Of a DNA stretch of 64,000 nucleotides, positions 1-39,391 are shown one piece after another. Each line of letters opens with the position of its first letter. Position 1 is the first letter of the stretch. Made by a program: the position numbers and the translations under genes. The notes under the pieces were generated by a model, which was given only the letters and a program-made list of their open reading frames with translations, had not been told where the DNA came from and ran no database searches. This DNA comes from a virus, in IMG/VR virus record IMGVR_UViG_3300031972_002122, positions 32,001-96,000 of that record. One strand, written 5' to 3'.

Positions 1-992
1 GGTGGGTTGTCGAAAGTGGTGCAACTGCTAGGACTTCCATAGGACTTGGCACTTCTGATAATGTGGAATTTGCGAATATAACAGTTAACGAATTAGTTAA
101 CGATAGTACAGTCGCTGGAACACAACTTACAGGATCATTCAGTGGATCATTTACGGGTGACGGTTCCCAACTTACTGGATTACCTTCTGCGCCAATTTCG
201 TCATATACCAATGCTGGTGATAATAGAATTGTTACTTCCGTAGATGCTACAACAGTTAATTCTGAGGTTAATCTAAAGTTTGATGGTACGAGGCTTGATG
301 TTACTGGTGATTTAAAAGTTTCGAATGGTATTTCAGCTTCTGGATCATCGACATTTGGTTTTGGACCGGATACATTTACAGTGAACAGTACTGGGATTAA
401 TGTTCCAAATTTACCGGGCGGTACTGACGACTCAGTTGTAATCCTTACCGCGGCAGGTGCGTTAGCTACTGACGAGATTGATTCTAGAGTGTGGGGAAGT
501 TCACTTGTTGATGGTAGTGGTGGAGCTTCTAGAGTTACATATTGGAATGATACTAATTCGGTAACTAGTAATGCATCATTTACATTTGATGGTACTGACC
601 TGACCGTTGGTTCGTCTGTATTTGGAACTGATGTAAATATCGCAGGTGACTTAGTCGTGCAAGGTACTGCATCATTTCAACACACCGATAGTCTATTAGT
701 ATCTGATAAGTTTATACTGCTAAATTCGGGGTCTGCAACTGGTGATGGTGGTATAATAATTCAGTCTGGTTCTAATGGTTTTGGTAATGCGATTGGGTGG
801 GATGATAGTGCACGTCGATTCGCATTCCAGATGGAGACTGTTATGGATGCTGGATTGTCTACGATGACGCCAGATGCATATGTAGCCGCAGTTATTGATG
901 TGGATACTGCTGGTTTTGACAAAAATTCGTCAGTTCATCAAGTGGCTGGTAACATAATGGTATCAGGTTCTGAGGCTTGGATTTACATTTAA
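1..992 (+). CDS. Tail-fibre-like virion protein, 5'-truncated by window edge
   Basis: Frame is open from the window start (WVVESGATARTSIGLG...); G/S/T-rich beta-type sequence; C-terminal DKFILLNSGS..GDGGIIIQ..IGWD segment typical of phage fibre-like proteins. Confidence 0.7.
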   Translation, partial: WVVESGATARTSIGLGTSDNVEFANITVNELVNDSTVAGTQLTGSFSGSFTGDGSQLTGLPSAPISSYTNAGDNRIVTSVDATTVNSEVNLKFDGTRLDVTGDLKVSNGISASGSSTFGFGPDTFTVNSTGINVPNLPGGTDDSVVILTAAGALATDEIDSRVWGSSLVDGSGGASRVTYWNDTNSVTSNASFTFDGTDLTVGSSVFGTDVNIAGDLVVQGTASFQHTDSLLVSDKFILLNSGSATGDGGIIIQSGSNGFGNAIGWDDSARRFAFQMETVMDAGLSTMTPDAYVAAVIDVDTAGFDKNSSVHQVAGNIMVSGSEAWIYI

Positions 993-1006
993 TGTGATTT
1001 GATGAT

Positions 1007-1198
1007 ATGGGATTGGTCGAAAAAGAAAAAAAGAAAATAAACAGTGAGTTAGGTGTTGAAATTAAAAACAATCTAACGTTAGAAGAGGTTGAGATCATCA
1101 TTCGGGTGATGGGCTCGGCATCATTCCCAGTCAAGGATATTGAACCATTGTACAGGGCTATATATAAATTACAAGAGTTACGAAACAAATTAAAATAA
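1007..1198 (+). CDS. Small hypothetical protein (probable paralog of next ORF)
   Basis: 63-aa ORF in operon orientation; LTLEEVEIII..F.VKDI..L...YKL pattern. Confidence 0.7.
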   Translation: MGLVEKEKKKINSELGVEIKNNLTLEEVEIIIRVMGSASFPVKDIEPLYRAIYKLQELRNKLK

Positions 1199-1199
1199 C

Positions 1200-1385
1200 A
1201 TGCAACATAGGTTAACATTTACAACAAACGAATTACTAGTTATAAGAGAGTCAGTCCACGCTATAACGATAAAGGGTGTAGACGCACCAGTCGTTGCGGG
1301 AGTTCTAGACAAAGTCTATAAAGGAATTGAAAAAGCCGCTACCGCGACTGAACAGTCTAAAACGGATGAAAAACCTAAATCCTAA
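1200..1385 (+). CDS. Small hypothetical protein
   Basis: 61-aa ORF abutting the previous gene; FTTNELLVI..I.GVDA..V...DKV pattern. Confidence 0.7.
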   Translation: MQHRLTFTTNELLVIRESVHAITIKGVDAPVVAGVLDKVYKGIEKAATATEQSKTDEKPKS

Positions 1386-1432
1386 ATTGTGGTGTTATTT
1401 TCACCAAACGATTGCCTTAATAAATTGTAACA

Positions 1433-3154
1433 ATGACGAATTGGAAACGACTTATAGTATCTGGTTCAGACGCTAGTCTGAAGTCACTAGCCATATCTGG
1501 TGGTGACGTTATCATTGATGATGGTGATCGATTAGCTATTGGTAATGCTAATCCATTACATGATATTCATATTGGTAGTGCGAGTGGGTCGTTGGTAAGT
1601 CCAGCGGCTGATATATTCGTGAATAACGATGGGCGTGCCGATATCGTATTACGAAATAGTTTAAATGATATAGAATTTTCGTTATCTGCTGGTGAGGTGA
1701 ATAATTTCTTCATCGCTCGGGGCGATGCTGGTATGTCATTTGTCACGGCTGGTGCTGGTGCCATAGCATTCGATGCTGGTAGTGGTACGGATGAGGTTGA
1801 AGTAACTAATGGGGTAGTTGACATTAATGGTCGACTCGACGTCAATGGGCAATTATATTATTCCACACAAGGAAGTACAGCCACTTCACTAGTTGGTCGT
1901 GACTCTACTGGAAAACTTACCACGGATGTTTCTGGAATAACTTCAGGATTTGGTGGTGGTGAGTGGGGTCGTACTGGAACTACAATTTATTATAATAGTG
2001 GGTCAGTTGGTATAGATACTGAAACGCCAACAACTCTACTAGAGGTGAGTGGTACATTTAAAGCGACTGATAATTCATCGATCGGTGGTGAGCCATCGTC
2101 GGTCGCAACTTTCAGAATAGTTCGGGGCGAAAGCGTTCCTAAAGTTTGGACAGATGCAGCATTTTATGCGAATACGCCATTAGTAATTGAACGAAATGAT
2201 AATGCGTATGTGACGTTTTTGGGTAGTAGTAGTAAAACGAGTGGGTTTGTATTTTCCGATGAGGATGCATGGCTCAGAGGATCAATGATTTATAAGCATG
2301 CGACTGATATGTTGGTGTTTAGAGCGGGCGGTACAGAAACTCTATGGAATAGAAACGGTAATGTCGGAATTAAAACAGACGATCCACAAGCTTCATTAGA
2401 TGTTGGTGGGGATACTGATGAGACTATACATTTGGGAAGGGCTAAATTCGGTTCATATGTCACTGATTATATGTATTTGTCACACTTCGATAATGGGTCG
2501 GGTACGAATTATGCTATAAAGCAAGCTGCTGGAGGCTCCACAACGGTGAACGCAGCTTCAGGACAAGACGTGGAGCTGGCGATTAATAATGATCCAATTC
2601 TAGGTGTCTATGGGGCAACTAACCGAGTTGGAATTAATACGAACACGCCAACCGCATCGTTGCATGTGAGTGGTGGGGCTCATATTGATGGTGATACGTC
2701 TATGATCGGGGGACTACAGATAAATGCTGTATCACCCGGGGAATCAACTCATAAACTATTAACTTGGAATAGTTTAGGGGGTGCCGTTACATATTCGACT
2801 TCGAGTCTTAACCTCGATGGTGGTGCGACGATGACGATCGAACGTCCAGTAACCAATTATATTGATTATCCAATATTTAGAGCACCTTACGATTTAACGA
2901 TTTCTGAAGTTAATGCGGTGATTTATGGTGGGACGTCGGTGGACGCGTTATTAGTTTTTGGTACGGATAGGTCTAATCTCACTTCAAAATTGATTAGCTC
3001 GTCACATACAGTTGACTCGGCAACTGTTGGGAACACGTTGACATCGTTTAGTACGGCATCGATGCCGATGGATAGTTTTTTAATCTGTTCGATGAGTTCG
3101 AATGTGGGGAGCGTGCAACTATTAACTATATCAGTGAAATATAAAAAAGATTAA
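1433..3154 (+). CDS. Tail fibre / long virion fibre protein
   Basis: Repeated (G/N/R)xVGIxTxxPxxxL(D/E/H)VxG modules (GSVGIDTETPTTLLEVSG, GNVGIKTDDPQASLDVGG, RVGINTNTPTASLHVSG). Confidence 0.75.
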   Translation: MTNWKRLIVSGSDASLKSLAISGGDVIIDDGDRLAIGNANPLHDIHIGSASGSLVSPAADIFVNNDGRADIVLRNSLNDIEFSLSAGEVNNFFIARGDAGMSFVTAGAGAIAFDAGSGTDEVEVTNGVVDINGRLDVNGQLYYSTQGSTATSLVGRDSTGKLTTDVSGITSGFGGGEWGRTGTTIYYNSGSVGIDTETPTTLLEVSGTFKATDNSSIGGEPSSVATFRIVRGESVPKVWTDAAFYANTPLVIERNDNAYVTFLGSSSKTSGFVFSDEDAWLRGSMIYKHATDMLVFRAGGTETLWNRNGNVGIKTDDPQASLDVGGDTDETIHLGRAKFGSYVTDYMYLSHFDNGSGTNYAIKQAAGGSTTVNAASGQDVELAINNDPILGVYGATNRVGINTNTPTASLHVSGGAHIDGDTSMIGGLQINAVSPGESTHKLLTWNSLGGAVTYSTSSLNLDGGATMTIERPVTNYIDYPIFRAPYDLTISEVNAVIYGGTSVDALLVFGTDRSNLTSKLISSSHTVDSATVGNTLTSFSTASMPMDSFLICSMSSNVGSVQLLTISVKYKKD

Positions 3155-3176
3155 TATATAACAAAAAGAATATATA

Positions 3177-3521
3177 ATGGCATTAAAGACAAACTACGAA
3201 TTAGATAATGTGATTTACAGCGACGCGTACTTACGAATTCACAAGATACGAACAGTTGCAGTTGATTATGAATATTTTGAAAACGTCGACGATCCAGAGC
3301 GACCAGATATTGCACAGGAACTGAAATGGAAGATTCGCTTAGAATCCTCAGCTACTGCATATGTATGGAACGGTAAAGAGTCTAGAGATAATAGAGCACA
3401 GCCACTTAAATGGTTTAGTTTTGAGTTTGAATATGATCTTGATAGTCCCAAAAATATATACGCACAGGCATACGATGCACTTAAAACTGCGAAGGAGTTT
3501 AGTGACGCTGTAGATGTTTAA
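3177..3521 (+). CDS. Hypothetical protein, possible fibre chaperone/accessory
   Basis: 114 aa directly after fibre gene; MALK...NIYAQAYDALK..EFSDAVDV architecture common downstream of fibre genes. Confidence 0.55.
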   Translation: MALKTNYELDNVIYSDAYLRIHKIRTVAVDYEYFENVDDPERPDIAQELKWKIRLESSATAYVWNGKESRDNRAQPLKWFSFEFEYDLDSPKNIYAQAYDALKTAKEFSDAVDV

Positions 3522-3533
3522 GACCATGATGCC

Positions 3534-3542
3534 ATATTTATA
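3534..3542 (+). promoter_or_regulatory. Putative late promoter motif ATATTTATA
   Basis: Recurring motif 16 nt upstream of the ATG at 3559; AAGGA RBS follows. Confidence 0.6.
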
Positions 3543-3558
3543 ATAAAGGAAATAATAT

Positions 3559-4728
3559 ATGGCTTCTGATCCTACAATATACGCTGGCTCGGCGAGTTTC
3601 TTCCCGGGCGACACCCCGTTTGGGTTCTACGACAACGACACACAGTTTCAATACGATGCTGAGAAGATGGCTAACTATTGCGCTAGGCGGTTAGGATATC
3701 CCGTTGTGGAAGTTGAACTAAATGAACTTCAATTCTTTTCAGCATTCGAGGCTGCAATCACGGAATACGGAAATCAGGTAAATACGTACAGTGCTAGGGA
3801 TAATATTTTAAATTTGATGGGATTCGATACTGGATCACAAGATATAAATCAAAAATATGTAGAGCCAACACTTCGTGGGTTATTTAGACTAGCTAAGCAG
3901 TACGGTAGTGAAGTTGGTGTTGGCGGTAATCTTACGTGGTTTTCTGGGAGTATTTCATTAGAGCCTAATAAGCAAGTATACGATTTAATATCAGATGCTA
4001 CTATCGAGACTGGTAGTTTCAGTACCGACGCATTTACTATACGTAAGGTATTTCATGAAGCTACGCCAAGTATTATGAAATATTTCGACCCACACCTTGG
4101 TACTGGTCTAGGTTCTCAACAATTTCTAAGTCAATTCGGTTGGGGTGGATTTTCAGCACCAATGAATTTCTTACTCATGCCGATGCATTATGATCTACTT
4201 AGAATGCAAGCTATTGAATTTAATGACCAGATTCGAAAGAGTGGATATTCATTCAAACTGACGAATAATCGCTTACGTATATTTCCAGTACCTCGTCAGG
4301 AAATGAAACTGTGGTTCAATTATACGTTGGACGCTGAGGCTGGACCGGGCGGTATCGGCGGTCAAGGTACTGACGGTGATGGTAAAATATCAGATCACAG
4401 TAATATACCTTACGGTAGACTTGTATATAGACATGTCAATGAGATCGGACGACAGTGGATTAGAAAATATACTCTAGCTATCTGTAAAGAAATGTTGGGG
4501 TATATTCGAGGTAAACACCAAAATATACCAGTTCCAGATGATGATACGACACTTAATCATGCCGATCTGATATCCGCTGCCGAGAATGAAAAAACCCAGC
4601 TAATAGAAGAATTGAGGGAAATGTTAGATCAGATGTCTAGACAATCACAGTTAGAGCGAAAGCAAGCTGAAGCTGACGTGTTAGCACAACAATTAGCAAA
4701 AGTACCATTGAAAATTTATATAGGATAA
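3559..4728 (+). CDS. Neck/head-completion protein (T4 gp13-like)
   Basis: YCARRLGYPVVEVEL N-terminus, WIRKYTLAICKEMLG..RGK and TLN..DLI..A..EK..L.EEL C-terminus; position upstream of sheath. Confidence 0.8.
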   Translation: MASDPTIYAGSASFFPGDTPFGFYDNDTQFQYDAEKMANYCARRLGYPVVEVELNELQFFSAFEAAITEYGNQVNTYSARDNILNLMGFDTGSQDINQKYVEPTLRGLFRLAKQYGSEVGVGGNLTWFSGSISLEPNKQVYDLISDATIETGSFSTDAFTIRKVFHEATPSIMKYFDPHLGTGLGSQQFLSQFGWGGFSAPMNFLLMPMHYDLLRMQAIEFNDQIRKSGYSFKLTNNRLRIFPVPRQEMKLWFNYTLDAEAGPGGIGGQGTDGDGKISDHSNIPYGRLVYRHVNEIGRQWIRKYTLAICKEMLGYIRGKHQNIPVPDDDTTLNHADLISAAENEKTQLIEELREMLDQMSRQSQLERKQAEADVLAQQLAKVPLKIYIG

Positions 4729-4733
4729 ACAAC

Positions 4734-5285
4734 ATGCCGTTATATGGTGGCCCGAGAGATCGTGCATTAATTCGAAGAATAAATAATGAACTACTCCAAC
4801 GTATTATTGGGGTGGAGGTTGCTGTGTATAAACTAGCCGTAGCGGATATGGACTCCAACATTTATGGAGAATCTAGTGAAAAGCGGTACTACAATCCAAT
4901 GCGTGTGCATGCACTTGTTAGGCGAGATGACTCGATAGTTAACTTATCGGAGACGGGAGAGATCAGTAAGGATAAGACCTTGTCTATAGGATTCTTACGA
5001 GATGAGTTAGTTAATCTAAATCTTGTCATGGAAGTGTCTGATATCATCGAGTGGGATGGTGGGTACTATCAGGTAGACAATGTGCGGCAGTCATCAGGTC
5101 AGTGGTGGGGACGTAATCCAGATACCTCAATACCAATTGCTGAAGGAGATTCTGGGGATCATGGATATTCAGTGTCTGTTATTGTTGAAGTTCATAGAAC
5201 ATCAACGTCAAACCTTAATTTGGTGGAGACTCGGTCTGGGATCAATAGTCTAACTACTAAATCTAAATTGCCGAGGAATTTATAA
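4734..5285 (+). CDS. Neck/head-closure protein (gp14-like)
   Basis: NELLQRIIG.EV..Y.....NIYGES pattern; synteny gp13-gp14-gp15-gp18. Confidence 0.7.
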   Translation: MPLYGGPRDRALIRRINNELLQRIIGVEVAVYKLAVADMDSNIYGESSEKRYYNPMRVHALVRRDDSIVNLSETGEISKDKTLSIGFLRDELVNLNLVMEVSDIIEWDGGYYQVDNVRQSSGQWWGRNPDTSIPIAEGDSGDHGYSVSVIVEVHRTSTSNLNLVETRSGINSLTTKSKLPRNL

Positions 5286-6169
5286 TGGCACGTAACCAAG
5301 AAAGAATACCACCATTCGAAGAAGGATATCAGGCTGGTGAGTTGAATAGAGCAACCCAGATGCGTAGGGATACCGACACGGTAAAAATCCCAAAGGTAAC
5401 CTTATACGATATTGACTATGCGATTATGTATCATCTATCAACCAATATGAAACTAAAGGTTAGAGAAGACAATCGGATGATCGACGTCCCAGTACTGTAT
5501 GCTGACGGTGAGAAGTGGGCACAAATAAGATCGCGTGGATTTCTAAGGGATGAAAAAAATAAAGTGATGGCACCTATGATAGCCATTAGAAGGTCTAGTG
5601 TTGAACCAGACTCTAGATTACCATACCCAGATTTAAACAATTATGTACCATTCAGGAAGTTTTACCCATATAAGACTATGAACATGCAGTATGATAAGTT
5701 ATCTGGGCAAACGCTTAGAAAACCATCGTATGACTTTTACATGGTCGATGTACCTAATTATGTTAGAGTTCAGTACGACCTGATCATATGGACGAACATG
5801 GTTGAACAGATGAACGGATTAGTTCAAGCTATTGTGGCGGTTTCTAACCACTTGTGGGGGGACTACCACACATTTAGGGCAGTTGTTAATAACGCATCGA
5901 TGAACACCACAAATAATGTGGGGGAGGATAGGGTCGTATCAACTACGATATCTATGCAAGTTGATGGGTGGTTGCAGGAAGAATTTGAGTACCATGAGCC
6001 TACTATGCGGAAGGCACATACAGTTAAGACGGTAAAGTTCGAAAACGAGAAGGAAGAATTTGATTTTTACACAGAGATGCCGTCTCCGTTTTTTCCAAAT
6101 AAGCACATAAGCTCAGAACCCAAGCATATCCAGCTCATGAATAAGCGGCGAAATTTGAGATATCGATAG
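5285..6169 (+). CDS. Tail terminator / sheath stabiliser (gp15-like)
   Basis: VPVLYADGEKW..I, P.IAI.R, P.YVRVQYDLIIWT..EQMN motifs; synteny. Confidence 0.7.
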   Translation: MARNQERIPPFEEGYQAGELNRATQMRRDTDTVKIPKVTLYDIDYAIMYHLSTNMKLKVREDNRMIDVPVLYADGEKWAQIRSRGFLRDEKNKVMAPMIAIRRSSVEPDSRLPYPDLNNYVPFRKFYPYKTMNMQYDKLSGQTLRKPSYDFYMVDVPNYVRVQYDLIIWTNMVEQMNGLVQAIVAVSNHLWGDYHTFRAVVNNASMNTTNNVGEDRVVSTTISMQVDGWLQEEFEYHEPTMRKAHTVKTVKFENEKEEFDFYTEMPSPFFPNKHISSEPKHIQLMNKRRNLRYR

Positions 6170-6188
6170 TGTTTGGATTTTTTGAAAC

Positions 6189-6197
6189 ATATTTATT
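6189..6197 (+). promoter_or_regulatory. Putative late promoter motif ATATTTATT
   Basis: 21 nt upstream of sheath ATG; GAGGA RBS follows. Confidence 0.6.
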
Positions 6198-6218
6198 ACA
6201 AAAAGAGGATAGTTTAGA

Positions 6219-8054
6219 ATGGCAAAGAATGTATTTTTATCTCCGGGTGTATTTACCAGAGAATTCGATCTAAGCTTTATGCAAGACCCAATCGCACCAG
6301 TGGGTGCTGCAGTTATTGGGCCAGCGGTTCGTGGACCGGCTCTTGTACCTACCCCAATCTCTACATACTCAGAGTATATTCGTTGGTTTGGAGATACATT
6401 TACATCGGGGTCTGGACAACTTGAGCAAGAGTATAAATACTTGACATCGTATGCGGTACAGGAATATTTAAGATACGGTGAGGTAATTACTGTAGTTAGA
6501 ATTTTGGCAGGTGCTTACACCCCAGCATATTCGAATGTAATTAATTCATCATCATACCAATTAGAACTTGCAGGATCAGGCGCGTATGCAGCTAGTAATA
6601 TGTCGTTCAAGTTGGAAGCACTTACAGATGGTGACATCACAAATAGTGGTCAAAACTTAGCATCTATTTCTGGATCAGGATTTGACGCGGATAATGGAAC
6701 TGACGGTTTATTAGTTTCTGGATCGAAGTATAATATTCGGTGGGAAATTTCTGGAGTTGATGAGGCTAGAGGTACGTTTGATTTATTGATTAGACGTGGT
6801 GATGACTATAATTCTAGAAAGATCGTTCTAGAACAGTATTCTCAGCTTTCGTTAGACCCTAGCACGGCTAATTATGTTACACGTGTTATTGGTGATCAAC
6901 AATGGACACTAAGATACGATTCTGGTGGAGAACCATATCTTCAGAAATCTGGATCATATCCTAATAGATCGAGATTTATACGTGTTAAGGATGTACAAAA
7001 TACGTTAAATTATATAGATAACTCTGGACAAGTTAGAGATAGTTCATTGACTGGTTCATTACCATCTATAGTATCTGGAACATTCGGATATGGTAACGAA
7101 GGTAATGTGGCGCATCCACGTGCTATGTATCATGCTATATGGAACAACAATACACAAGGATTCAATCCAGCATCTGCTTCTGCGGGTAAAACTGCATACG
7201 AAGATGCGATCGACATCCTAGCAAATAAAGATCAATTTGACATCAACTTGTTGATGACTCCGGGTCTAGTCGAAGGTGGAGCAGATCATGCTAAAATAAT
7301 CACACGTGCAATTAATATGTGTGAAGATCGTGGTGATATTTTCTACATCATCGATCCGACTACATTTGGATCGACAGTAGGTCAAGCACAGTTAGCGGCT
7401 GAAGGTCGTAACACTAACTATGCGGGTATGTATTACCCATGGGTACAGATTCCTGATCCAGACTTAGGTCGTTCAGTATGGATACCACCATCTGCTATCG
7501 TACCGGGCGTGTTCTCATTCAATGACCTTGTAAGACATCCATGGTTTGCACCAGCGGGTCTTAACAGAGGTGGGTTAGATATCGCAGTACAAACTGAAAG
7601 ATTGATGACTCAGAATGATCGAGATAATTTGTACATTAAATCTGTGAATCCAATCGCAACTTTCCCACGTACTGGTGTAGTTGTTTGGGGTCAGAAAACA
7701 TTACAGAAGAAAAGATCAGCACTTGATAGAATCAACGTTAGAAGACTTCTTATCGATGCGAAGAGATTCGTAGCACAAACAGTTAAGTGGTTAGTATTTG
7801 AGCAGAATACGGTTGAGACACGTGCTAGATTTATAGAGTTAGTTGAACCTTATTTTAGAAGAGTCAAAAACCAGCAAGGGCTTTATGACTATCGAATTGT
7901 GATTGACGAGCGTAACAACACTCCAGATGTGATCGATAGAAATGAAATGCGTGCGAACATTTACTTAAAGCCAGCTAAGACTGCAGAATTCATTATAGTT
8001 GATTTCGTAGTTCTTCCAACTGGTGCATTGTTCCCACTTGACTCACAGGAATAA
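6219..8054 (+). CDS. Contractile tail sheath protein (gp18-like)
   Basis: SPGVFTREFD start; YYPWV, WFAPAGLNRG, VNPI, WGQKTL, DRINVRRLL, FEQN, P.KTAEFI motifs. Confidence 0.97.
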   Translation: MAKNVFLSPGVFTREFDLSFMQDPIAPVGAAVIGPAVRGPALVPTPISTYSEYIRWFGDTFTSGSGQLEQEYKYLTSYAVQEYLRYGEVITVVRILAGAYTPAYSNVINSSSYQLELAGSGAYAASNMSFKLEALTDGDITNSGQNLASISGSGFDADNGTDGLLVSGSKYNIRWEISGVDEARGTFDLLIRRGDDYNSRKIVLEQYSQLSLDPSTANYVTRVIGDQQWTLRYDSGGEPYLQKSGSYPNRSRFIRVKDVQNTLNYIDNSGQVRDSSLTGSLPSIVSGTFGYGNEGNVAHPRAMYHAIWNNNTQGFNPASASAGKTAYEDAIDILANKDQFDINLLMTPGLVEGGADHAKIITRAINMCEDRGDIFYIIDPTTFGSTVGQAQLAAEGRNTNYAGMYYPWVQIPDPDLGRSVWIPPSAIVPGVFSFNDLVRHPWFAPAGLNRGGLDIAVQTERLMTQNDRDNLYIKSVNPIATFPRTGVVVWGQKTLQKKRSALDRINVRRLLIDAKRFVAQTVKWLVFEQNTVETRARFIELVEPYFRRVKNQQGLYDYRIVIDERNNTPDVIDRNEMRANIYLKPAKTAEFIIVDFVVLPTGALFPLDSQE

Positions 8055-8096: not shown

Positions 8097-8576
8097 ATGC
8101 CAAGAATAGTAGTACCTGATGCGCACCATCCGAGTTTGCAGTTTCGTTACCAAGTAACTACATCGAAGTTACCGAGTGCGCAACTTTATGCAAGATCGGC
8201 TCAACAGCCATCATTCGACAACGCTCCAGTGAGTGTAGAGCATATTAATTACTACTTCAAAGTGAAGGGTAAGACTCGGTGGAATGACATCACACTATCT
8301 TGCTATCAGTTTGAAGGAATAACAGCAAAAGAACTTTGGGATTATCTTAACGGTAGTCACCAAGAAGTTGAGGGTGCAGTTGACATGTACGCTCCATCAT
8401 ACAAGCATGATATGCAGCTAATGATATTAGCCCCAGACGGATCAACTCCAGTAGGGACATGGAAACTAGTAGGCGCATTCATTGCTAACGCATCGTGGGG
8501 TGACATGGATTGGGGAACTGATGACGTTATCCAATGTGATATTACCATATCATATGACTACGCAACTTTCAGCTAA
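8097..8576 (+). CDS. Tail tube protein (gp19-like), copy 1
   Basis: KGKTRWNDITL, W.L.GAF, WG..DW, ITISYDYA motifs; directly after sheath. Confidence 0.9.
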   Translation: MPRIVVPDAHHPSLQFRYQVTTSKLPSAQLYARSAQQPSFDNAPVSVEHINYYFKVKGKTRWNDITLSCYQFEGITAKELWDYLNGSHQEVEGAVDMYAPSYKHDMQLMILAPDGSTPVGTWKLVGAFIANASWGDMDWGTDDVIQCDITISYDYATFS

Positions 8577-8859: not shown

Positions 8860-8891
8860 AAAGGCATTTGCTACGGCAGATGCCTTTTTTT
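8860..8891 (+). terminator. Rho-independent terminator
   Basis: AAAGGCATTTGC-TACG-GCAGATGCCTTT hairpin followed by T run. Confidence 0.85.
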
Positions 8892-8927
8892 GTTGTATGG
8901 CTATTTATTATAAATGAAGAGTATCAA

Positions 8928-9404
8928 ATGCCTAGATTAGCACAACCTGATGTATTTCACCCTAGATTGCAATTCCGTTATACGTGGTTTACGTCCCACT
9001 TACCGGGCATCTCGATATACGCAAGGTCAGCTCAACAACCATCGTTTGATAATAATCCAGTTACGGTGGATTTTATGAGTAGTTATTACAAACTAAAAGG
9101 TAAGACTCGGTGGAATGACATCACACTGACATGTTACCAGTTTGAAGGGATTACTGGTCGGGAGTTATATCAGTATTTGAATAATGATCATTTTAATGTT
9201 AGCGATGCCGTAGAAAACTTTGCAGATGAATATAAACATAAGATGCAATTGTTTTTACTTAACCCATTGGGAGTTCCGACTGGGATATGGACGTTGGAGG
9301 GAGCATTTATTGCGAATGCGTCATGGGGTAGTATGGATTATGGGTCGGACGAAGTTATGGAATGTGAAATAACTATTTCATACGATTATGCGGAGTTTTT
9401 ATAA
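8928..9404 (+). CDS. Tail tube protein (gp19-like), copy 2
   Basis: Clear paralog of 8097-8576 (YARSAQQPSFDN, KGKTRWNDITL.CYQFEGIT); start set at ATG 8928 after terminator and CTATTTATT motif. Confidence 0.88.
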   Translation: MPRLAQPDVFHPRLQFRYTWFTSHLPGISIYARSAQQPSFDNNPVTVDFMSSYYKLKGKTRWNDITLTCYQFEGITGRELYQYLNNDHFNVSDAVENFADEYKHKMQLFLLNPLGVPTGIWTLEGAFIANASWGSMDYGSDEVMECEITISYDYAEFL

Positions 9405-9415: not shown

Positions 9416-9907
9416 ATGGCAAGATTATCACCATCTAGTTATAAACCAATTTTACAATATCACTTCAGTGTGAATTTTACGAAATACCCACTTCAGTTGC
9501 CGTTGCAAAATACTGCAAATTATGCGCGGGGTACCGATTTACCGTCAGCGGATAATAATCCAGTATTGGTTGAGTATGGTAATACCTACATGTATGTGAA
9601 GGGTAAGACTCGATGGAATGCTATTACTATGCAATTTTATTCATTATCAGACCCAGATACGAATAAGCAGATGTGGGATTATTTAGGAGTCCATCAAGAT
9701 TCTGACACGGGAGCTGATAGTTTCAAGGCAGATTATGCTGGTGATGTTGCTATAACCCTATTAAATCCAGACGAAACACCTGTAGGGACATGGACACTAG
9801 TCAATGCGTTCATTTCGAATATTAACTGGGGTAATGTTGATTGGGCATCTGAAGATGTAATTCAGCCTGAGATTACATTTGTGTATGATCATGCGGTCTG
9901 GTCTTGA
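9416..9907 (+). CDS. Tail tube-like protein (gp19-like), copy 3
   Basis: KGKTRWNAIT, PVGTWTLVNAF, WG.VDW, ITFVYD motifs shared with copies 1-2. Confidence 0.85.
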   Translation: MARLSPSSYKPILQYHFSVNFTKYPLQLPLQNTANYARGTDLPSADNNPVLVEYGNTYMYVKGKTRWNAITMQFYSLSDPDTNKQMWDYLGVHQDSDTGADSFKADYAGDVAITLLNPDETPVGTWTLVNAFISNINWGNVDWASEDVIQPEITFVYDHAVWS

Positions 9908-18935: not shown

Positions 18936-20267
18936 ATGGTGAATCTAATAACGTCTAAAAATGCGAATGACGTATTGTCAAACTTATCACGTGAAACTTT
19001 CTGGGTACCTATCCAGTCCGACTGGACGCTACATCATACACAGAACAGAATCAGTTCGATGTATATCTACGACATTCAGACTGAAAATGAGTATATCGTA
19101 GGGTTCCACTCGGTTGATATGGATAATATTGACTTTGATTGGTTTATGGATCGTCTCCCGAATGGTAGACGTTTCTGTTATAGATTGAGATATCTAAAGA
19201 CGGATACACCATTCGAGGACGCCGACATGTTAGTATGGTATAATACTGGAAAGCCAATAGAGCTTGATCAGGACGCGACCATGATATTCAGAAATTATCA
19301 CAGACGTTATAAGGGCATTAAAAATATAAATGATTGTATACCAATCATGAAAATTCTAGAATATTGTCGGAGTGTTAGAAATAAATTCGTATCGTATGGA
19401 TTAGATTACATTCATGTAAACTCTAAGGGCTATTTATTTTATAATGACGTGTACCTAAAATCGTTACACACAATAGAACTTGCTGGTATTTGTGTAGATA
19501 GTGAATTATTCAACGCTAGGTATAACAAAGATACTGATCCAATTGTATACACGGAATACAACCCATACACACTCACTGGTAGACCTAGTTCTAGATTTGG
19601 TGGGATTAATTTCAACTCATTGAATAAGAAGGATGGGTCACGGGCGATGATCGTTAGTAGGTTCGAAGGTGGGAGACTGTTTGAGATTGATTATGATAGC
19701 TATCACGTTAGACTGATCGGGAATATTATAGGTTTTGAACTACCAGACGGAAACTTACACGAACATTTTGCTAGGATATATTTCGGGAGGGATGATATAA
19801 CACCCGAGTTGTATGAAAAAAGTAAAACGATAACATTCCAGCAACTATATGGTAAAGTTAAGCCAGAATACAGTCATATAGAATTTTTTAAACGAATACA
19901 AGAGTTCATAGATAGTCAGTGGAATGATTACGAAACTGTGGGCTATTTTAGTAGTCCATTGTCTGGTCGTAAATTCAGGGAGGGGTGGTTTGATAGTATG
20001 AATAAATCTAAGATGTTCAATTATATCATACAATGTTTCGAGTCTGAGGTTAATGCTGTAGTGCTTAGTGATATTTTACAATATTTATATCAGAGAACCA
20101 GTAAAGTTATTATGTATACGTATGATGCGATAGTAATAGATTACGATCCGTTGGATGGTATTGATGTTATTAGGGGTATTATGAAACGGATGACCAAATT
20201 TGGATATCCAGTACACATACAAGCTGGACTTAATTATAATGATATGATTGATGTTAAAATCGACTAA
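18936..20267 (+). CDS. Atypical family-A DNA polymerase-like protein (polymerase domain only)
   Basis: TLTGRPSS..GINF, motif A DYDSYHVRL, motif B K.ITFQQLYG, FNYIIQ..E, motif C YTYDA. Confidence 0.8.
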   Translation: MVNLITSKNANDVLSNLSRETFWVPIQSDWTLHHTQNRISSMYIYDIQTENEYIVGFHSVDMDNIDFDWFMDRLPNGRRFCYRLRYLKTDTPFEDADMLVWYNTGKPIELDQDATMIFRNYHRRYKGIKNINDCIPIMKILEYCRSVRNKFVSYGLDYIHVNSKGYLFYNDVYLKSLHTIELAGICVDSELFNARYNKDTDPIVYTEYNPYTLTGRPSSRFGGINFNSLNKKDGSRAMIVSRFEGGRLFEIDYDSYHVRLIGNIIGFELPDGNLHEHFARIYFGRDDITPELYEKSKTITFQQLYGKVKPEYSHIEFFKRIQEFIDSQWNDYETVGYFSSPLSGRKFREGWFDSMNKSKMFNYIIQCFESEVNAVVLSDILQYLYQRTSKVIMYTYDAIVIDYDPLDGIDVIRGIMKRMTKFGYPVHIQAGLNYNDMIDVKID

Positions 20268-21580: not shown

Positions 21581-22765
21581 ATGGCTAGAAAAAAGAAAGC
21601 AACTGGGGTATCGATGGTAGACGTGACCAAGAATGTATCTGCTAGTTTACAGAAGATGTTCAAAAACACGGGCATTAATATTCAGAGTGGTATCACTGCG
21701 GATAGTTCTGCAAATGTAACTACGTGGATACCTACAGGATGTAGACCTTTAGACCTAGCTATTAGTAATTTACCAGACCGCGGGGGTTTTCCTTGCGGTC
21801 GGATTACTATCCTATATGGACCGGAGCAATCAGGTAAGTCATTACTAGCTATGCATGCGATCGCCAATACACAAAAGCTCGGTGGTAAAGCAGTTTACAT
21901 AGACGCCGAGTTTTCAATCCATGAGGAGTTCGCGAAGTCTATAGGAGTAGACCTAACTCAGTTAGATTATCTAGCTGAGAATCAGGCGGAAACGATTATG
22001 GTACTGGTTGAAGGGTATTGTTCAGAATTTAGAAAGAACTTCCCAGATACGCCACTGACGATTGTTGTAGATTCCATCGCTAGTATGGTCACTGAAGACA
22101 ATCTAAAGAATGGTCACAATTCAGTTGGTTATGATACGTCGTTATCTAAACTGTTATCAACTAGCTTGAAAGTGTTGGGTAGAGTTGTATCTGAGCATAA
22201 TGTTGCACTGATATTTACCAATCAGGCTAGGATGAAAATGAATATACAGAATCCTAGAGAGAATCCGTACAAGCCATTTGGCGGTCAGGCAGCACCACAC
22301 TACGCATCGCTGATAATCTTCATGGAGAAATCTTCGAAGATTAAGGGTAAGGTGAAGGGTGAGGAACGGTTGATTGGGAGATCGGCTAGAGTTCGGACTA
22401 TTAAGAATAGGCTAGCACCTCCAGAGGTATCGTTAGTACTCGATATATACTTTGACCGAGGTATCGACGACTTTGAGAGTTGGTACAACATGGTTAAAGC
22501 GTTCGGTAACGTTACGTTTAACGGTGCTTGGATATCTTACACGTCGAAAGACGGTCGTGAATTTAAGGAAAATGGTTGGAATAAGTTTTGTAAAAAAGTT
22601 TTAGAACCAAATCCAGACATAGCTGAAGAAATTTGGTTACATACAGCTAATGAGTTTATCGTCAAGTATAAAAATAGGGACGAGGATACTGAAGGCATGG
22701 AAATTGTTAGGGAGTCTGAATTAGACACACCAGCGAATAAACTGAATAGTGATGGAGGCAAATAG
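21581..22765 (+). CDS. recA: RecA/UvsX-like recombinase
   Basis: PTG..LDLA, Walker A GPEQSGKS, YIDAE, IVVDSIA, IFTNQ.R, GG.A, KNRLAPP. Confidence 0.93.
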   Translation: MARKKKATGVSMVDVTKNVSASLQKMFKNTGINIQSGITADSSANVTTWIPTGCRPLDLAISNLPDRGGFPCGRITILYGPEQSGKSLLAMHAIANTQKLGGKAVYIDAEFSIHEEFAKSIGVDLTQLDYLAENQAETIMVLVEGYCSEFRKNFPDTPLTIVVDSIASMVTEDNLKNGHNSVGYDTSLSKLLSTSLKVLGRVVSEHNVALIFTNQARMKMNIQNPRENPYKPFGGQAAPHYASLIIFMEKSSKIKGKVKGEERLIGRSARVRTIKNRLAPPEVSLVLDIYFDRGIDDFESWYNMVKAFGNVTFNGAWISYTSKDGREFKENGWNKFCKKVLEPNPDIAEEIWLHTANEFIVKYKNRDEDTEGMEIVRESELDTPANKLNSDGGK

Positions 22766-23810
22766 ACTCAAGAATCTTTTTTCTAAATTTAAAGAGGAAC
22801 AAGACGCTATTAAGGACAGAAATAGTCGTGTGTTGATCGTGGATGGTTTGAATATGTTTATTCGATCATTCGCGGCATCACCCGCTATGAATGAGCGTGG
22901 TGAGCACATCGGTGGGACAATTGGGTTTATGAAGTCATTCTTCGCTGTTATTAGACGCTTCCGACCAACACGGTGTGTGTTAGTGTTTGATGGGTTAGAT
23001 GGCGGTGCTAGACGTAGAAAGAAGTTTCCAGAATATAAATCTGGACGTAAAAATCGTGACAGATTGAATAGATTTTTTGAACTTGATGGTCATCTAACCG
23101 AAGGTGACTCATTCCAAATTCAGTTCGGTAATCTAGAACAATTACTGAACACGTTACCAATAACCATGATGTCAATCGATTATATAGAAGCGGATGACGT
23201 TATCGGGTATATATCGAAAGAATATTATAGTTATACAGATGTTGGGGATATTATAATTGTGTCCGCCGACAAGGATTTCTTGCAGTTGGTCGATGAGCGT
23301 GTTACCGTTTACAGCCCAATAAAAAAGAAATTATACGATATTGATCTCGTTAAAAAGGAGTTCAACATATCACCAAACAATTATCTCACTTTTAGGACTT
23401 TAACAGGCGATGTGTCTGATAGCATACCCGGTGTCAAGGGTGTTGGGTTAAAAACCCTACTGAAGTATTTTCCAGAGATTATAGAAGGGGACGTCGATCC
23501 ACGGGGAATAGTTCAGTTAGCTAATCAGAAAATCGAGGAGGGTAGTAAGCGCAAGACCTATCAAAATGTGGTCAATGCGGCAGATCAAATTGATGTGAAC
23601 TGGGACTTGATGCAATTATCAAATGTGGATATCCCAGACGCTAAACGGACTATAATACGTAGTATTATGGATGCGGAGGTTTATAAGTTAGATAAGCTTA
23701 GACTTAAGAAGCTTATTTATAAACATGGTCTCAACGACCACATACCACGATTTGATGAATGGATATACTCATCATTAACACAGTTAGACTTATATGCAGA
23801 ATCTGAGTAG
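22752..23810 (+). CDS. 5'-3' exonuclease / flap endonuclease (T4 RNase H / PolI N-terminal type)
   Basis: LIVDG.N, VFDG, YK.GR, EADDVI, SADKDFLQL, GD.SD.IPGV.GVG.KT. Confidence 0.93.
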   Translation: MEANRLKNLFSKFKEEQDAIKDRNSRVLIVDGLNMFIRSFAASPAMNERGEHIGGTIGFMKSFFAVIRRFRPTRCVLVFDGLDGGARRRKKFPEYKSGRKNRDRLNRFFELDGHLTEGDSFQIQFGNLEQLLNTLPITMMSIDYIEADDVIGYISKEYYSYTDVGDIIIVSADKDFLQLVDERVTVYSPIKKKLYDIDLVKKEFNISPNNYLTFRTLTGDVSDSIPGVKGVGLKTLLKYFPEIIEGDVDPRGIVQLANQKIEEGSKRKTYQNVVNAADQIDVNWDLMQLSNVDIPDAKRTIIRSIMDAEVYKLDKLRLKKLIYKHGLNDHIPRFDEWIYSSLTQLDLYAESE

Positions 23811-25167
23811 ATACGGACATGGTTTTCAAGTAAAGTTATTGGCTTGTTTATTGACTGATGTTCATTTTAGTAGTAGGATTTTTGATATTCTGAGATCGGA
23901 ATATTTCGATTCTGAAGCACTTGCATGGTTATGTGACGTGGTACTTAAGTATTATCAAACATATCACTGTATAGCGACTATGGACGTCCTTAAAGTAGAA
24001 ATTGATAGCATTTCAGATGAAAACTTAAAGGCTGAGGTTGTGAAAGTGCTTCGGGAGTCTTACGGTAGCGTGGAATCTTCCGACTTACAATTTGTGAAGG
24101 AGTCTACAATCGAATTTTGTAGAAATCAGGAATTGCAGTTTGCCATTATGGATTCCGTTGATATGATCAAAACTGGAAATTTTGAAGGTATTAAAAAACG
24201 CGTTGATGAGGCATTAAAAAAGGGTGAAGACACTAACGTTGGGTTGGATTATTTGACGGAGATTGATCTTCGGTATGAAGATATGGCGCGGTCACCTGTT
24301 ACTACTGGTTTTCCTTACGTAGATTTTTTAACTCAAGGCGGATTGTCTGGTGGTGAGCTGGGTATTATTGTCGGTCCGGGTGGGTCGGGGAAGTCTTGGG
24401 TACTGGCTACGATGTGTGCCAATGCAATGATCGCAGGGCATAAAACATTATACATAACGTTGGAACTTGGTGAGGCATACGTAGGCGTCAGGATCGATTG
24501 TATATTAACGAGTATTCCGATGAACGAACTTAAAGAGAATCGGGAGATTATTAAGAATAGACTGAAGCGAGTGACTGGTTCACTTAAAATTCAATGGTAC
24601 CCCACTAGAAATTTATCTACAGTTGGGTTGAGATCATTATTAGATCGGATGTCTTTGCTTGGAGAAATGCCCGAGGTTATCTATCTAGATTATGCGGATT
24701 TGATGCGGCTTAGTAGCTCAAAGTCTAAGCGGAAGGATGAAGAGTTGCAGGAATTGTATGAAGAGATACGTGGTATTGGCGGTGAGTACGACATACCAAT
24801 ATGGTCAGCATCTCAAGCTAATAGATCGAGTCATGCTGATGAGGTTGAGTTTGTGGACGCTGGAATGATATCTGAAAGTATGGGAAAGCACTTCACCGCA
24901 GATTTTATGATGTCTATTTTAAGAAAAGAAAAGGATAAAATGTCGGACACTGCCAAATTTCATATTATAAAAAATAGATTTGGGGAGGATGGTGTGACAT
25001 TACTGTCTAAGATGGATACTCAACATGGCGTACTTGAGATTTATAGACCTAATAGTCAGAAGAGCAGAGACTTAGAGGATAAGATAATTGAGAATGAGAC
25101 TAAGCCAGATATTAAGCTGAAGGGGCATTATGAAAAATTCTTCGGCGATCAGGAGGCTAAAGCATGA
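23794..25167 (+). CDS. dnaB: Replicative DNA helicase (DnaB/gp41-like)
   Basis: Walker A GPGGSGKS, YITLEL, YLDYADL, WSASQANR, KNRFG. Confidence 0.92.
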   Translation: MQNLSRYGHGFQVKLLACLLTDVHFSSRIFDILRSEYFDSEALAWLCDVVLKYYQTYHCIATMDVLKVEIDSISDENLKAEVVKVLRESYGSVESSDLQFVKESTIEFCRNQELQFAIMDSVDMIKTGNFEGIKKRVDEALKKGEDTNVGLDYLTEIDLRYEDMARSPVTTGFPYVDFLTQGGLSGGELGIIVGPGGSGKSWVLATMCANAMIAGHKTLYITLELGEAYVGVRIDCILTSIPMNELKENREIIKNRLKRVTGSLKIQWYPTRNLSTVGLRSLLDRMSLLGEMPEVIYLDYADLMRLSSSKSKRKDEELQELYEEIRGIGGEYDIPIWSASQANRSSHADEVEFVDAGMISESMGKHFTADFMMSILRKEKDKMSDTAKFHIIKNRFGEDGVTLLSKMDTQHGVLEIYRPNSQKSRDLEDKIIENETKPDIKLKGHYEKFFGDQEAKA

Positions 25168-33205: not shown

Positions 33206-33406
33206 ATGAGTTATTACAACGTGAAAGTGAATGTCACTACTGAAAGTGACAAGGGTCAAATTAAGCAGAAGTCAGAATTGTACTTGGTTGAGGCTGAGAG
33301 TGTAACGGAAGCTGAGGCTAAGATGTACAAAGATTTTGAGGGATATAATGACGATTGGGAAGTCGTTTCGACTGTTAAGACCAAAATTATTAAGGTAGTA
33401 GAATGA
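33206..33406 (+). CDS. DUF4494-like small protein
   Basis: Y.VKV....E...G..K...E.YLV.AES.TEAE pattern recalled for DUF4494 (Bacteroidota). Confidence 0.65.
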   Translation: MSYYNVKVNVTTESDKGQIKQKSELYLVEAESVTEAEAKMYKDFEGYNDDWEVVSTVKTKIIKVVE

Positions 33407-37479: not shown

Positions 37480-37490
37480 AACGAGTATAA

Positions 37491-38872: not shown

Positions 38873-39391
38873 ATGAGAATTACATATGATGAGGTTTCCC
38901 CGTTTACTGGGAATCGGCGAGTGATGATTGAACCAGACCCAGAGAAGCAAGATAACATGAAAGTGTGTATGGATACTGGTTATCACACATACGCTGAGAG
39001 TTGGAAAAAGGAATCGGATGTGATCGATATCATCGAGAACACATTCCCATCTATATTATTAGACACTAAACGTGTGATGGATGATGGCAACATCTGGTAT
39101 AAATTAATGTTAGTTACGCCATTTGTTATGTTGATACCTGAAAGGTTTGGTGATAATGAAAGTGTGTGGGCTATATATGCGCTCAAAAATGGCAACCCAG
39201 AAACTGACGAGATCGTAATGGAAATTGCTGCAGTAGATGGGACACCACTTTATAGGTCGATTGATGTTGATACTCGAAAAGAATTCCCAGACGAAAAATT
39301 TGAACTTGCCATGGACGCATTTCAAAGCGTCGGGGCTGCAGTGTATGGTAAAATATTTGAAATGGCAAAATCTGAAACGGAAGCTGAATGA
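38873..39391 (+). CDS. Hypothetical protein in glycan island
   Basis: 172-aa ORF between GT genes. Confidence 0.7.
   Translation: MRITYDEVSPFTGNRRVMIEPDPEKQDNMKVCMDTGYHTYAESWKKESDVIDIIENTFPSILLDTKRVMDDGNIWYKLMLVTPFVMLIPERFGDNESVWAIYALKNGNPETDEIVMEIAAVDGTPLYRSIDVDTRKEFPDEKFELAMDAFQSVGAAVYGKIFEMAKSETEAE

Follow-up and report, generated by a model that had tools for sequence, protein, structure and literature searches.

Does a tripeptide, serine or threonine followed by glycine and serine ([S/T]-G-S), mark the sites at which a phage attaches sugars to its own particle? The question is raised by a stretch of 64,000 nucleotides of the virus record IMGVR_UViG_3300031972_002122 (called the window here), which spans bases 32001–96000 of a single virus contig of 128,570 bp. 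This contig (G000) has 173 open reading frames (ORFs) in its whole proteome, and the + strand carries all real genes of the window. The Pfam and PHROGs families of the window are those of a distant T4-like myovirus, and the source is an uncultured marine T4-like phage. An earlier note, made from the letters of the window, had counted [S/T]-G-S in several virion proteins and proposed that it marks O-glycosylation sites for the glycosyltransferases (GTs) of a gene island, giving a proteoglycan-like coat. We found that the motif is about five times over expectation in the outer particle proteins of this phage and its relatives and that its excess is restricted to a phage lineage with a particular GT2 and GT4 core. 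The best reading of [S/T]-G-S, to which we assign a probability of roughly one half, is that of a putative phage-encoded O-glycosylation sequon.

Excess of [S/T]-G-S in outward-facing proteins

The five proteins singled out in the earlier note carry 6, 3, 3, 5 and 6 copies of the motif, 23 in all over 2358 residues, exactly as it had counted. Per-protein shuffles that preserve composition gave an expectation of 4.20 (standard deviation 2.0), and block shuffles that keep local G/S richness gave 5.4, 4.9 and 4.5 (blocks of 15, 30 and 60 residues). The enrichment thus stands, as 23 copies were reached in none of the 20,000 global and none of the 5,000 block shuffles, the maximum being 14. Four of the five proteins are enriched individually, namely ORF 63–992 (6 versus 1.14 expected, P=0.00075), the neck protein (3 versus 0.24, P=0.0017), the tail sheath (5 versus 0.47, P=0.00025) and ORF 62062–63492 (6 versus 0.67, P<5e-5). 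ORF 63–992 had been taken for a whole protein; it is the C-terminal part of a 423-residue ORF, its six sites are indeed in the window, and the full protein has eight, with one tandem unit, LTGSFSGSFTGDGSQLTG. This ORF has no Pfam or PHROG family, and the homologue encoded by the Flavobacterium phage vB_FspM_immuto (hereafter immuto), the closest cultured relative (42% identity over the sheath), is annotated as 'virion structural protein'.

As the motif had been picked after viewing the data, all tripeptides were scanned without pre-selection. SGS came first in the five proteins (17 versus 2.26, Poisson P=3.5e-10; runner-up P=4.6e-4) and again first in the whole G000 proteome (44 versus 15.7). 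Four related genomes were compared, G000 and its relatives G001, G002 and G003; in the same unselected scans, SGS was top in G001, and SGS and TGS were the top two in G002. It is thus exceedingly improbable that the signal is a chance or composition artefact of G/S-rich beta proteins chosen post hoc, given that no shuffle out of 20,000 reproduced it, that SGS tops about 8000 tripeptides in several genomes and that the result is replicated in independent proteins and genomes. What speaks for such an artefact is the choice of motif after the fact, the fibre-like ORF 1433–3154, which is not significant alone (3 versus 1.68, P=0.24), and phage P-HM2, whose fibres are rich in G, S and T and which has a mild SGS excess (55 versus 31.4).

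The claim that the motif marks virion proteins held in a narrower form, as it is confined to outward-facing or fibre-like ones. Ten G000 proteins of this outer class have 50 copies versus 10.1 expected, a comparison that is partly circular in that six of the ten, members without a family, were placed in the class for their size, motif content and position next to virion genes. The sheath, the neck, the capsid and a LamG-containing baseplate protein, four outer proteins recognized without recourse to the motif, have 13 versus about 2.1. In the 16 inner or other structural proteins (the three tail tubes, hub, portal, protease, a tape-measure-like protein and others), there are 2 versus 3.6, and in the remaining 147 ORFs 17 versus 14.1. 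The replication module was also described correctly as nearly motif-free. Its ORFs between positions 18936 and 31793 contain a single [S/T]-G-S, in the DnaB-like ORF 23794–25167.

Motif-rich ORFs also lie side by side. ORF 62062–63492 is presumed to be a fibre or spike, its location in the virion being a matter of prediction. It is followed by a 533-residue ORF that runs past the end of the window (5 copies versus 1.18) and then by one of 417 residues with 7 copies; the site contexts of the latter two may resemble a beta-helix. Altogether, four more motif-rich G000 ORFs are located outside the window or span its end. Except for the LamG domain of the baseplate protein, the motif-rich proteins have no Pfam match even at E<=1.

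The relatives have motif-rich proteins as well. Those of immuto are annotated as tail spike (26 sites), tail spike, tail fiber, sheath and 'virion structural protein', and non-homologous fibre proteins of G002 (20 sites in 451 residues) and G001 (21 in 766) are similarly rich. In the relatives' fibres, the motif is found within the unit F-[ST]GS-F-[ST]GS-F-x-G-[DN]-G-S-G-L-T and in tandem heptad-like repeats, and therefore part of their excess is repeat inheritance. This raises the alternative that shared fibre modules, repeats or N-terminal boxes, have been inherited and just happen to hold SGS. Tandem units and repeats are present in the fibres of G001, G002 and immuto, the word 'GSF' is also over-represented, and ORFs 63–992 and 1433–3154 share an SGS-bearing N-terminal box, W-K-[KR]-L-I-x-SGS-D-A. 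We nevertheless regard this explanation as very unlikely, as sheath, neck and capsid proteins are not fibres, are mutually unrelated and are each enriched. In addition, the tandem unit holds only 2 of the 69 G000 sites, block shuffling leaves the signal, and the G000 excess persists beyond internally repeated or mutually similar segments.

Large repeat proteins bring other dominant words into some genomes, namely QLP, PSG and LPS in G003 (QLP 42 versus 3.8) and SGT, TSG and GTS in phage Mel-JY01 (ORF 635–3052; SGT 96 versus 22.9).

Specificity, conservation and structural setting of the motif

The word is specific. We analysed two sets of sheath homologues, the best 120 (69–100% identity) and 150 distant representatives (36–63% identity). 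In the distant set, the ratios of observed to expected counts are 5.4 for SGS, 2.5 for TGS, 1.4 for SGT and 1.1 for TGT, and they are close to 1 for NGS (0.9), DGS (1.1), AGS (1.0), GGS (0.8), SGN (0.9), SGD (0.6) and SGA (1.0). Alanine or serine in the middle gives intermediate values (SAS 2.4×, TAS 1.9×, SSS 1.7×). Similarly, in 37 G000 proteins of the structural region, chosen by genomic position only, SGS is at 4.2× and TGS at 3.2×, with every other cell of the table at or below 2.2×; the corresponding values in the 136 other G000 proteins are 1.3× and 0.7×. The consensus is [S/T]-[G>A>S]-S, in which the last residue is strictly serine. The caveat that beta-rich fibre proteins are G/S-rich anyway does not account for the motif, as NGS, DGS, AGS, SGT and SGN are not enriched and block shuffles fail to reproduce it.

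The signal is at the protein level, since the codons at the sites vary. The sites of the window are encoded by 10 or more different nonamers, with all four glycine codons and both serine codon families, and a DNA-level motif was rejected on this basis. Likewise, in 32 sheath DNA sequences the site serines use both TCN and AGY codons, and the glycine all four codons.

As a separate observation on codon usage, the coding sequences of 9 of the 23 sites include GGA-TC and hence GGATC/GATC, TCTGGATCA occurring 5 times; GGA makes up 39% of the site glycine codons versus 22% overall.

The sheath sites are strongly conserved in the near set (Table 1). All five precede the Pfam sheath core (residues 328–597), in agreement with the N-terminal location given in the earlier note. 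[S/T]-G-S is retained in 120, 119, 120, 120 and 109 of the 120 homologues, and where it is lost, one site has changed to SGA and another to SAS, SSS or TAS. In this N-terminal half, only 9.5% of tripeptides reach at least 95% conservation, and the residues beside the sites are often highly variable, with identities to the query down to 0.01–0.06. Mean identity is 0.92 for the motif residues, versus 0.62, 0.82 and 0.68 for the non-motif S, G and T of the same region. A sixth motif is found in a variable loop (query residues 110–121), where it occupies three main alternative columns, in 31, 34 and 21 sequences. In the 150 distant sheaths, density is 4.0× (631 versus 157.6), with the query's own sites kept in only about 12–22 of the 150. 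Sites are thus gained and lost while density is maintained, and the motif itself is under selection. In the neck protein, sites are partly conserved across orthologues, and new ones are present in relatives. The capsid site, 'VV-SGS', belongs to an internal insertion absent from more distant T4-like phages; phage RM378 has 'FV-TGS' there.

The predicted sheath structure (mean predicted local distance difference test score, pLDDT, 88.5; predicted template-modelling score 0.85) matches T4 gp18 over its full length, with a template-modelling (TM) score of 0.63 over 728 alignment columns. The sequence alignment is restricted to the C-terminal core (profile positions 370–589 to gp18 residues 433–652), and the profile search aligned no solved homologue to the motif-bearing N-terminal region. 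That region presumably corresponds to the outer domains of T4 gp18, facing outward. In the model, G-S opens a loop at every site, and confidence is lowest (block pLDDT 68) in the loop that follows S151. The motif is thus predicted to lie where a strand or helix runs into a loop, a geometry as compatible with an accessible acceptor as with a structural cap.

The main rival of the sequon is accordingly a cap or turn at the end of a strand or helix. It would involve no modification and be favoured for the sake of folding, assembly or stability; the side-chain hydroxyls would cap the backbone and the glycine would be left-handed. In the model, S63 and S244 end strands and S151 and T278 end helices. 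The hydrophobic flanks are also in line with a cap, since 59% of the residues at position -1 and 51% of those at +3 are hydrophobic around 255 sites of the four related genomes, versus 32% in the background, with Phe enriched 3.6× and 4.1×, respectively. The fibres of the relatives, which embed the motif in a longer, structural-looking unit and in tandem heptad-like repeats, point the same way. Nevertheless, a cap remains an unlikely explanation in our view. The same folds in other T4-like phages make no use of the motif, with none of six sheaths enriched among phages lacking GT4 and with SGS ranks of 595 and 4301 in two of their proteomes. The usual formers of turns and caps, N-G and D-G, are not enriched, nor are SGT, SGN and SGD; the motif shifts position while its density is kept, and the tandem fibre unit accounts for merely 2 of the 69 G000 sites.

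Known sequons did not explain the signal. Bacteroidota use D-[ST]-[AILVMT] as a general O-glycosylation sequon; in the 10 outer proteins it is not enriched (24 versus 25.6 expected), nor is N-x-[ST] (65 versus 63.6), and both were discarded. In animal proteoglycans, the xylosylation site is Ser-Gly with acidic flanks. The phage motif resembles it in having Ser followed by Gly in a presumably exposed segment. In contrast to the animal sites, the phage flanks are not acidic (the D/E fraction is 0.112 within six residues on either side of 50 sites, versus 0.107 in the background), Thr is frequent before Gly (TGS 2.5–3.2×), and a serine is obligatory after it. The proteoglycan analogy drawn in the earlier note is thus not supported.

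Glycosyltransferases of the phage and their co-occurrence with the motif

Pfam recognizes several GTs of the phage, two of GT4 and three of GT2 as well as GT8. Three of these GTs form a conserved core at the start of the sugar island, consisting of two adjoining GT4-type genes (GT4#1 and GT4#2) and a GT2 gene for a protein of 258 residues (ORF 39388–40164). The PF00534 match of GT4#1 is below the cut-off in G000 and is precomputed for many homologues. Its best PDB match by sequence is B736L of chlorovirus NY-2A (E=6e-11). The predicted structure (pLDDT 89.1) has a GT-B fold, with the same protein as the top Foldseek match (3oy2, E=4.5e-16, TM 0.61/0.75). GT4#1 has the predicted two-Rossmann fold and the GT1/GT4 C-terminal motif of retaining GT-B enzymes of family GT4. 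The best PDB sequence matches of the GT2 are SunS (7msn/7msp, E=1.1e-3), GmaR (E=3e-3) and the related entry 7msk (E=0.03). Its best NCBIfam match is the SunS family (TIGR04195), at 32.3 bits versus a cut-off of 350 bits and over residues 2–105 only, and its nearest Atlas clusters are 100% viral. These matches point, no more than tentatively, to a polypeptide acceptor.

The part of the island that follows the core is variable. It encodes a PseC/ArnB-like aminotransferase, SDR epimerases/dehydratases, an RmlD-like reductase, a sulfotransferase, a methyltransferase, further GT2 and GT8 enzymes, a Mom-like protein, a ClpP-like protease and a short UDP-glucose dehydrogenase. The island is shared mainly with G002, and its product would be strain-variable. 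The coat of xylose, glucuronic acid and sulfate envisaged in the earlier note is not borne out. According to Pfam, the island has GT1, GT2 and GT8 families and no xylosyltransferase of the GT14 type, and ORF 49581–50651 matches UDP-xylose synthase/ArnA models weakly (87 bits versus a cut-off of 294). The sulfotransferase (45246–45851) and the UDP-glucose dehydrogenase (56443–57297) have no homologue in G001, G002, G003, immuto, Mel-JY01 or RM378, and several genomes devoid of both still show the enrichment.

We compared motif density with the presence of the core. Over whole proteomes, the observed and expected numbers of [S/T]-G-S are 69/28.3 in G000, 114/33.6 in G001, 78/25.7 in G002 and 63/31.2 in G003. 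Among cultured phages, immuto (SGS 65/24.6, rank 1; TGS 52/24.0, rank 4), Mel-JY01 (SGS 89/33.1, rank 4; TGS 45/22.9, rank 28) and RM378 (SGS 29/11.2, rank 4; TGS 24/8.7, rank 8) are enriched. The values are low in Melnitz (SGS 32/24.7, rank 595; TGS 27/25.9, rank 2693) and Cr30 (SGS 16/17.5, rank 4301; TGS 15/13.2, rank 2147). P-HM2 has SGS at 1.75× (rank 10) and no excess of TGS (38/35.5, rank 2218), and the 484-kb phage LR756508 has SGS at 81/56.8 (rank 127) and TGS at 48/33.6 (rank 319).

GT4#1 homologues were found in only 7 of 50,697 phage records, namely immuto (4 records), Mel-JY01, LR756508 and RM378. A block of PD-(D/E)XK nuclease, GT4#1, GT4#2 and GT2 genes is syntenic in immuto and Mel-JY01, and GT4#1 and GT2 are present in RM378. 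A further relative, G004, as well as G002 and G003, has GT4#1, and the latter two also have GT4#2 and GT2. Strong enrichment is seen in all six genomes with both GT4#1 and GT2 (G000, G002, G003, immuto, Mel-JY01 and RM378). G001 apart, it is absent or weak in the four without GT2 (Melnitz, Cr30, P-HM2 and LR756508), of which LR756508 has a GT4#1-like gene at 32% identity, no GT2 homologue and an enrichment of only 1.4×. For the sheath alone, three of the five GT4-bearing phages are enriched (G000, immuto and Mel-JY01) and none of the six GT4-lacking ones (Melnitz, P-HM2, Cr30, SP-15, LIS04 and HSE3). The expectation that motif density would follow the GT4/GT2 core was thus upheld over these genomes (6/6 versus 0/4), but it seems to fail in the incomplete G001, and phylogeny confounds it. 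Since the hosts of the enriched phages are as diverse as Flavobacterium, Microcystis and Rhodothermus, the motif should have a phage-encoded reader.

Homologues in each of the three enriched cultured phages, but in none of Melnitz, P-HM2 and Cr30, were found for only five of the 173 G000 ORFs; these five encode three structural proteins, GT4#1 and the GT2 (39388–40164). This profile bears on the possibility of another lineage-specific reader, which could be an enzyme adding something other than a glycan to serine (phosphorylation, acylation or phospho-linked groups) or a chaperone or decoration protein docking on the motif. Every argument for a trans-acting, lineage-specific reader applies equally to it, the obligatory Ser at position 3 and S/T at position 1 would suit many serine-directed enzymes, and the three structural genes show that non-enzyme markers of the lineage exist. 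We judge it distinctly unlikely, because the two GTs are the only enzymes with this phyletic profile, to the exclusion of any kinase, acyltransferase or similar, and because Pfam and NCBIfam scans of the window revealed no such enzyme beside the virion genes.

The GT core might also serve other purposes. Known activities of phage GTs include the glycosylation of DNA and changes to the surface glycans of the host (PMC12619734). In immuto, nucleoside analysis by liquid chromatography with ultraviolet and mass spectrometric detection found canonical dA, dC and dT and full replacement of dG by fdPreQ1, and the accessible text of that report mentions no glycosylated nucleoside (PMC10516641). As far as this text goes, DNA is therefore unlikely to be the target of the core GTs, which immuto shares. 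DNA glycosylation as their task was considered unlikely on that basis, less clearly so for the present phage, which also has a Mom-like gene. The core may instead act on a host surface polysaccharide, which would leave the motif without an explanation.

We therefore return to the sequon as the preferred reading. [S/T]-G-S, in which A or S may take the middle place and the third residue must be Ser, would be a short recognition sequon on outward-facing virion proteins, that is, on the outer domains of the sheath, the neck, the capsid insertion, the baseplate and the fibre and spike proteins. It would be read in the cytoplasm of the infected cell by a phage-encoded, protein-modifying enzyme, and the likeliest modification would be O-glycosylation of a motif serine. 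The conserved GT-A enzyme (39388–40164) is the best candidate for the initiator, and the conserved GT4 pair (35989–38870), together with the strain-variable sugar island (40329–57297), would build the rest of the glycan.

Several observations weigh against this reading. The non-virion proteins of G000 are not depleted in the motif (17 versus 14.1), and therefore the three-residue word cannot be the whole signal. The predicted ends of strands and helices at the sheath sites are what a cap would look like. GT4#1 is a generic retaining GT-B enzyme whose structural neighbours act on sugars, lipids and small molecules, and the GT2 has only a weak similarity to SunS and GmaR, with E=1e-3 to 3e-2 over some 100–125 N-terminal residues of the GT-A fold. 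The link with the core is also uneven per protein, as the sheath of RM378 has 1 site, that of LR756508 has 0 and the neck protein of immuto has 0. G001, the genome with the highest density, has no GT4#1, GT4#2 or GT2 in its 110 kb (63% complete according to CheckV); an SNF2 helicase and an S-adenosylmethionine lyase occupy the syntenic position. Its sole GT-like signal is a weak PF00534 match (E=0.0016) in the orthologue of window ORF 33403–34515. Moreover, comparisons of sheath, capsid and neck place the enriched, GT-bearing phages nearest to one another, and among the 50,697 phage records the GT2 is found in no cultured phage outside the enriched group; co-occurrence is therefore inseparable from shared ancestry. 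Finally, any modification of the serines, its nature as a sugar and the identity of the enzyme that would add it are inferred from genes and sequences.

ORF 33403–34515 itself encodes 370 residues, has no family match and is conserved in G001–G003. It could be a further, divergent glycosyltransferase common to all four relatives.

Known glycosylation systems and further genes of the window

Among known kinds of glycosylation, that of mycobacteriophage particles is the closest. Freeman and colleagues reportedly described, in Cell Host Microbe in 2023, O-glycosylation of mycobacteriophage virions by phage-encoded glycosyltransferases. The two systems would be alike in that soluble phage-encoded GTs are proposed to decorate the phage's own particle in the cytoplasm. 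As cited in PMC12619734, the mycobacteriophage glycans sit at the C-termini of capsid and tail-tube subunits, in siphoviruses of Actinobacteria. In contrast, the candidate sites of the present study belong to T4-like myoviruses, lie at loop junctions inside the sheath, neck, capsid insertion and fibre sequences and are proposed from genes alone; the three tail-tube paralogues have 0 sites, and a defined tripeptide is involved.

SunS, the sublancin S-glycosyltransferase (7msn), and GmaR are the best PDB matches of the phage GT2; both are soluble and transfer the sugar of a nucleotide sugar directly to a polypeptide. GmaR (PDB 22ao) is the Listeria flagellin O-GlcNAc transferase. The GT2, at 258 residues, differs from both in being without their C-terminal domains, and the likeness is a resemblance and not family membership. 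GT4#1 and B736L (3oy2) are both virus-encoded GT-B proteins, with 18% identity; B736L comes from a eukaryotic algal virus and not from a phage, and its depositors labelled it 'putative glycosyltransferase'. GtfA and GtfB are the O-GlcNAc transferase pair of serine-rich-repeat adhesins. The GT4 pair resembles them in consisting of two adjacent paralogues, of about 500 and 450 residues, and the targets are serine-centred, with a small residue between hydroxyl residues. Unlike theirs, the phage targets are isolated tripeptides and not long Ser-rich repeats. An identity of the pair with GtfA/GtfB was rejected, as neither was among the PDB sequence matches (B736L, TreT and others) or the Foldseek matches listed.

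We found no published report of a Ser-Gly-Ser or SGS glycosylation motif in open-access papers or bioRxiv. If the sequon is real, it would be the first defined acceptor motif for the glycosylation of a phage particle and the first sign that abundant aquatic T4-like phages, beyond mycobacteriophages, coat their sheath, neck, capsid and fibres with sugars. Such a coat could affect how particles adsorb and aggregate, how well they withstand proteases and grazers, and how host defences recognize them. In that case, the variable sugar island would generate diversity at the virion surface, with glycotypes evolving like bacterial serotypes, and a three-residue, Ser-specific sequon with a small soluble GT-A enzyme would be of interest for cytoplasmic glycoengineering. 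Searches of metagenomes gave at least 8000 candidates each for the sheath and for GT4#1, with at least 7955 sheath homologues at E<=1e-20 and best matches at 69–93% identity. On a wider and more tentative view, a marine and freshwater T4-like clade might coat its particle with sugars by means of a minimal Ser-specific sequon, a SunS/GmaR-like starter, GT4 extenders and a variable island, with evolving glycotypes. It is also possible, again tentatively, that this sugar-coated clade is globally abundant and infects Bacteroidota, cyanobacteria and Rhodothermus, its sequons being gained and lost in variable loops. As immuto (on Flavobacterium) and Mel-JY01 (on Microcystis) are in culture, the sequon idea is directly testable.

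The coordinates of the features are collected in Table 1. By Pfam and PHROGs, the virion genes of the window code for a neck protein, a gp15-like protein, the tail sheath, three tail-tube paralogues and the baseplate hub, and the replication module for gp32, a RecA/UvsX-like protein, a 5'-3' exonuclease, DnaB, a class II ribonucleotide reductase and PolB. After the sugar/glycosyltransferase island, which extends from about 35989 to 57297, come an endolysin gene and other large ORFs that have no known family. Terminase, portal, prohead protease, major capsid protein and PhoH genes lie 5' of the window.

Table 1. Features of the window that bear on the [S/T]-G-S motif (window positions; residues numbered within each protein; site conservation among the best 120 sheath homologues)
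Feature	Position	Strand	Details
Fibre-like virion protein, C-terminal 330 of 423 residues	1–992 (ORF 63–992)	+	ORF begins 279 nucleotides before the window
Fibre-like protein, 573 residues	1433–3154	+	3 SGS; no family match
Neck/head-completion protein	3559–4728	+	phrog_211, E=4.5e-14; [S/T]-G-S at residues 91, 129 and 151
Tail sheath	6219–8054	+	PF04984 and PF17482, phrog_23; sites at residues 63, 151, 167, 244 and 278
Sheath site S63-G-S	6405–6413	+	SGS 120/120; predicted end of strand 60–63
Sheath site S151-G-S	6669–6677	+	SGS 119/120; predicted end of helix 146–151
Sheath site S167-G-S	6717–6725	+	SGS 105, TGS 15 of 120; in predicted loop 166–172
Sheath site S244-G-S	6948–6956	+	SGS 119, TGS 1 of 120; predicted end of strand 239–244
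Sheath site T278-G-S	7050–7058	+	SGS 101, TGS 8, SAS 6, SSS 4, TAS 1 of 120; predicted end of helix 275–278
Three gp19-like tail-tube paralogues in a row	8097–8576, 8868–9404, 9416–9907	+	PF06841/phrog_4542; no [S/T]-G-S
GT4#1, predicted retaining GT-B glycosyltransferase	35989–37479	+	Conserved core; PF00534 weak, phrog_2170
GT4#2, GT-B paralogue adjoining GT4#1	37491–38870	+	Kept in G002, G003, immuto and Mel-JY01; not in RM378
GT2 (GT-A), 258 residues	39388–40164	+	Conserved core; PF00535, E=7.8e-7
Variable sugar-nucleotide and GT island	40329–57297	+	Shared mainly with G002, hardly with G003, immuto, Mel-JY01 or RM378
Protein of 476 residues, unknown family	62062–63492	+	First of three motif-rich ORFs in a row; no family match
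Start of 533-residue ORF	63593–64000	+	Runs past the end of the window

Some further genes deserve mention. The three tail-tube paralogues of G000 are matched by two ORFs in G001 and G002 and by one in G003, immuto and Mel-JY01. There are two polymerase-like genes, a 443-residue ORF at 18936–20267 with a weak family-A match (PF00476, E=3e-4; phrog_17) and a full family-B polymerase gene at 29256–31793; immuto is mentioned in a paper on 'jumping DNA polymerases'.

Within the island, the UDP-glucose/GDP-mannose dehydrogenase ORF 56443–57297 encodes 284 residues, in which the NAD-binding and central domains were matched and no C-terminal UDP-binding domain; it may be a truncated, split or short form. 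The Mom-family protein (PF25680, E=5e-13) and a Methyltransf_24 protein are encoded at 54220–55134 and 52726–53298, and this pair hints at a DNA modification of this phage separate from the GT core. The ClpP-like protease (51661–52230) comes in addition to the prohead protease encoded 5' of the window (L002:2224-2871) and also matches, below the cut-off, the model of a 'ClpP-related head maturation protease'.

Also 5' of the window, an 89-residue ORF at genome positions 24650–24919 (L002:5951-6220) has a PHROG match to ribosomal protein S21 (E=1.5e-6). Finally, the contig carries at least five homing/HNH endonuclease genes, at genome positions 1672–2400 and 21587–22378 and at window positions 59467–60006, 67869–68447 and 69478–70224, one of which sits between the prohead protease and capsid genes.

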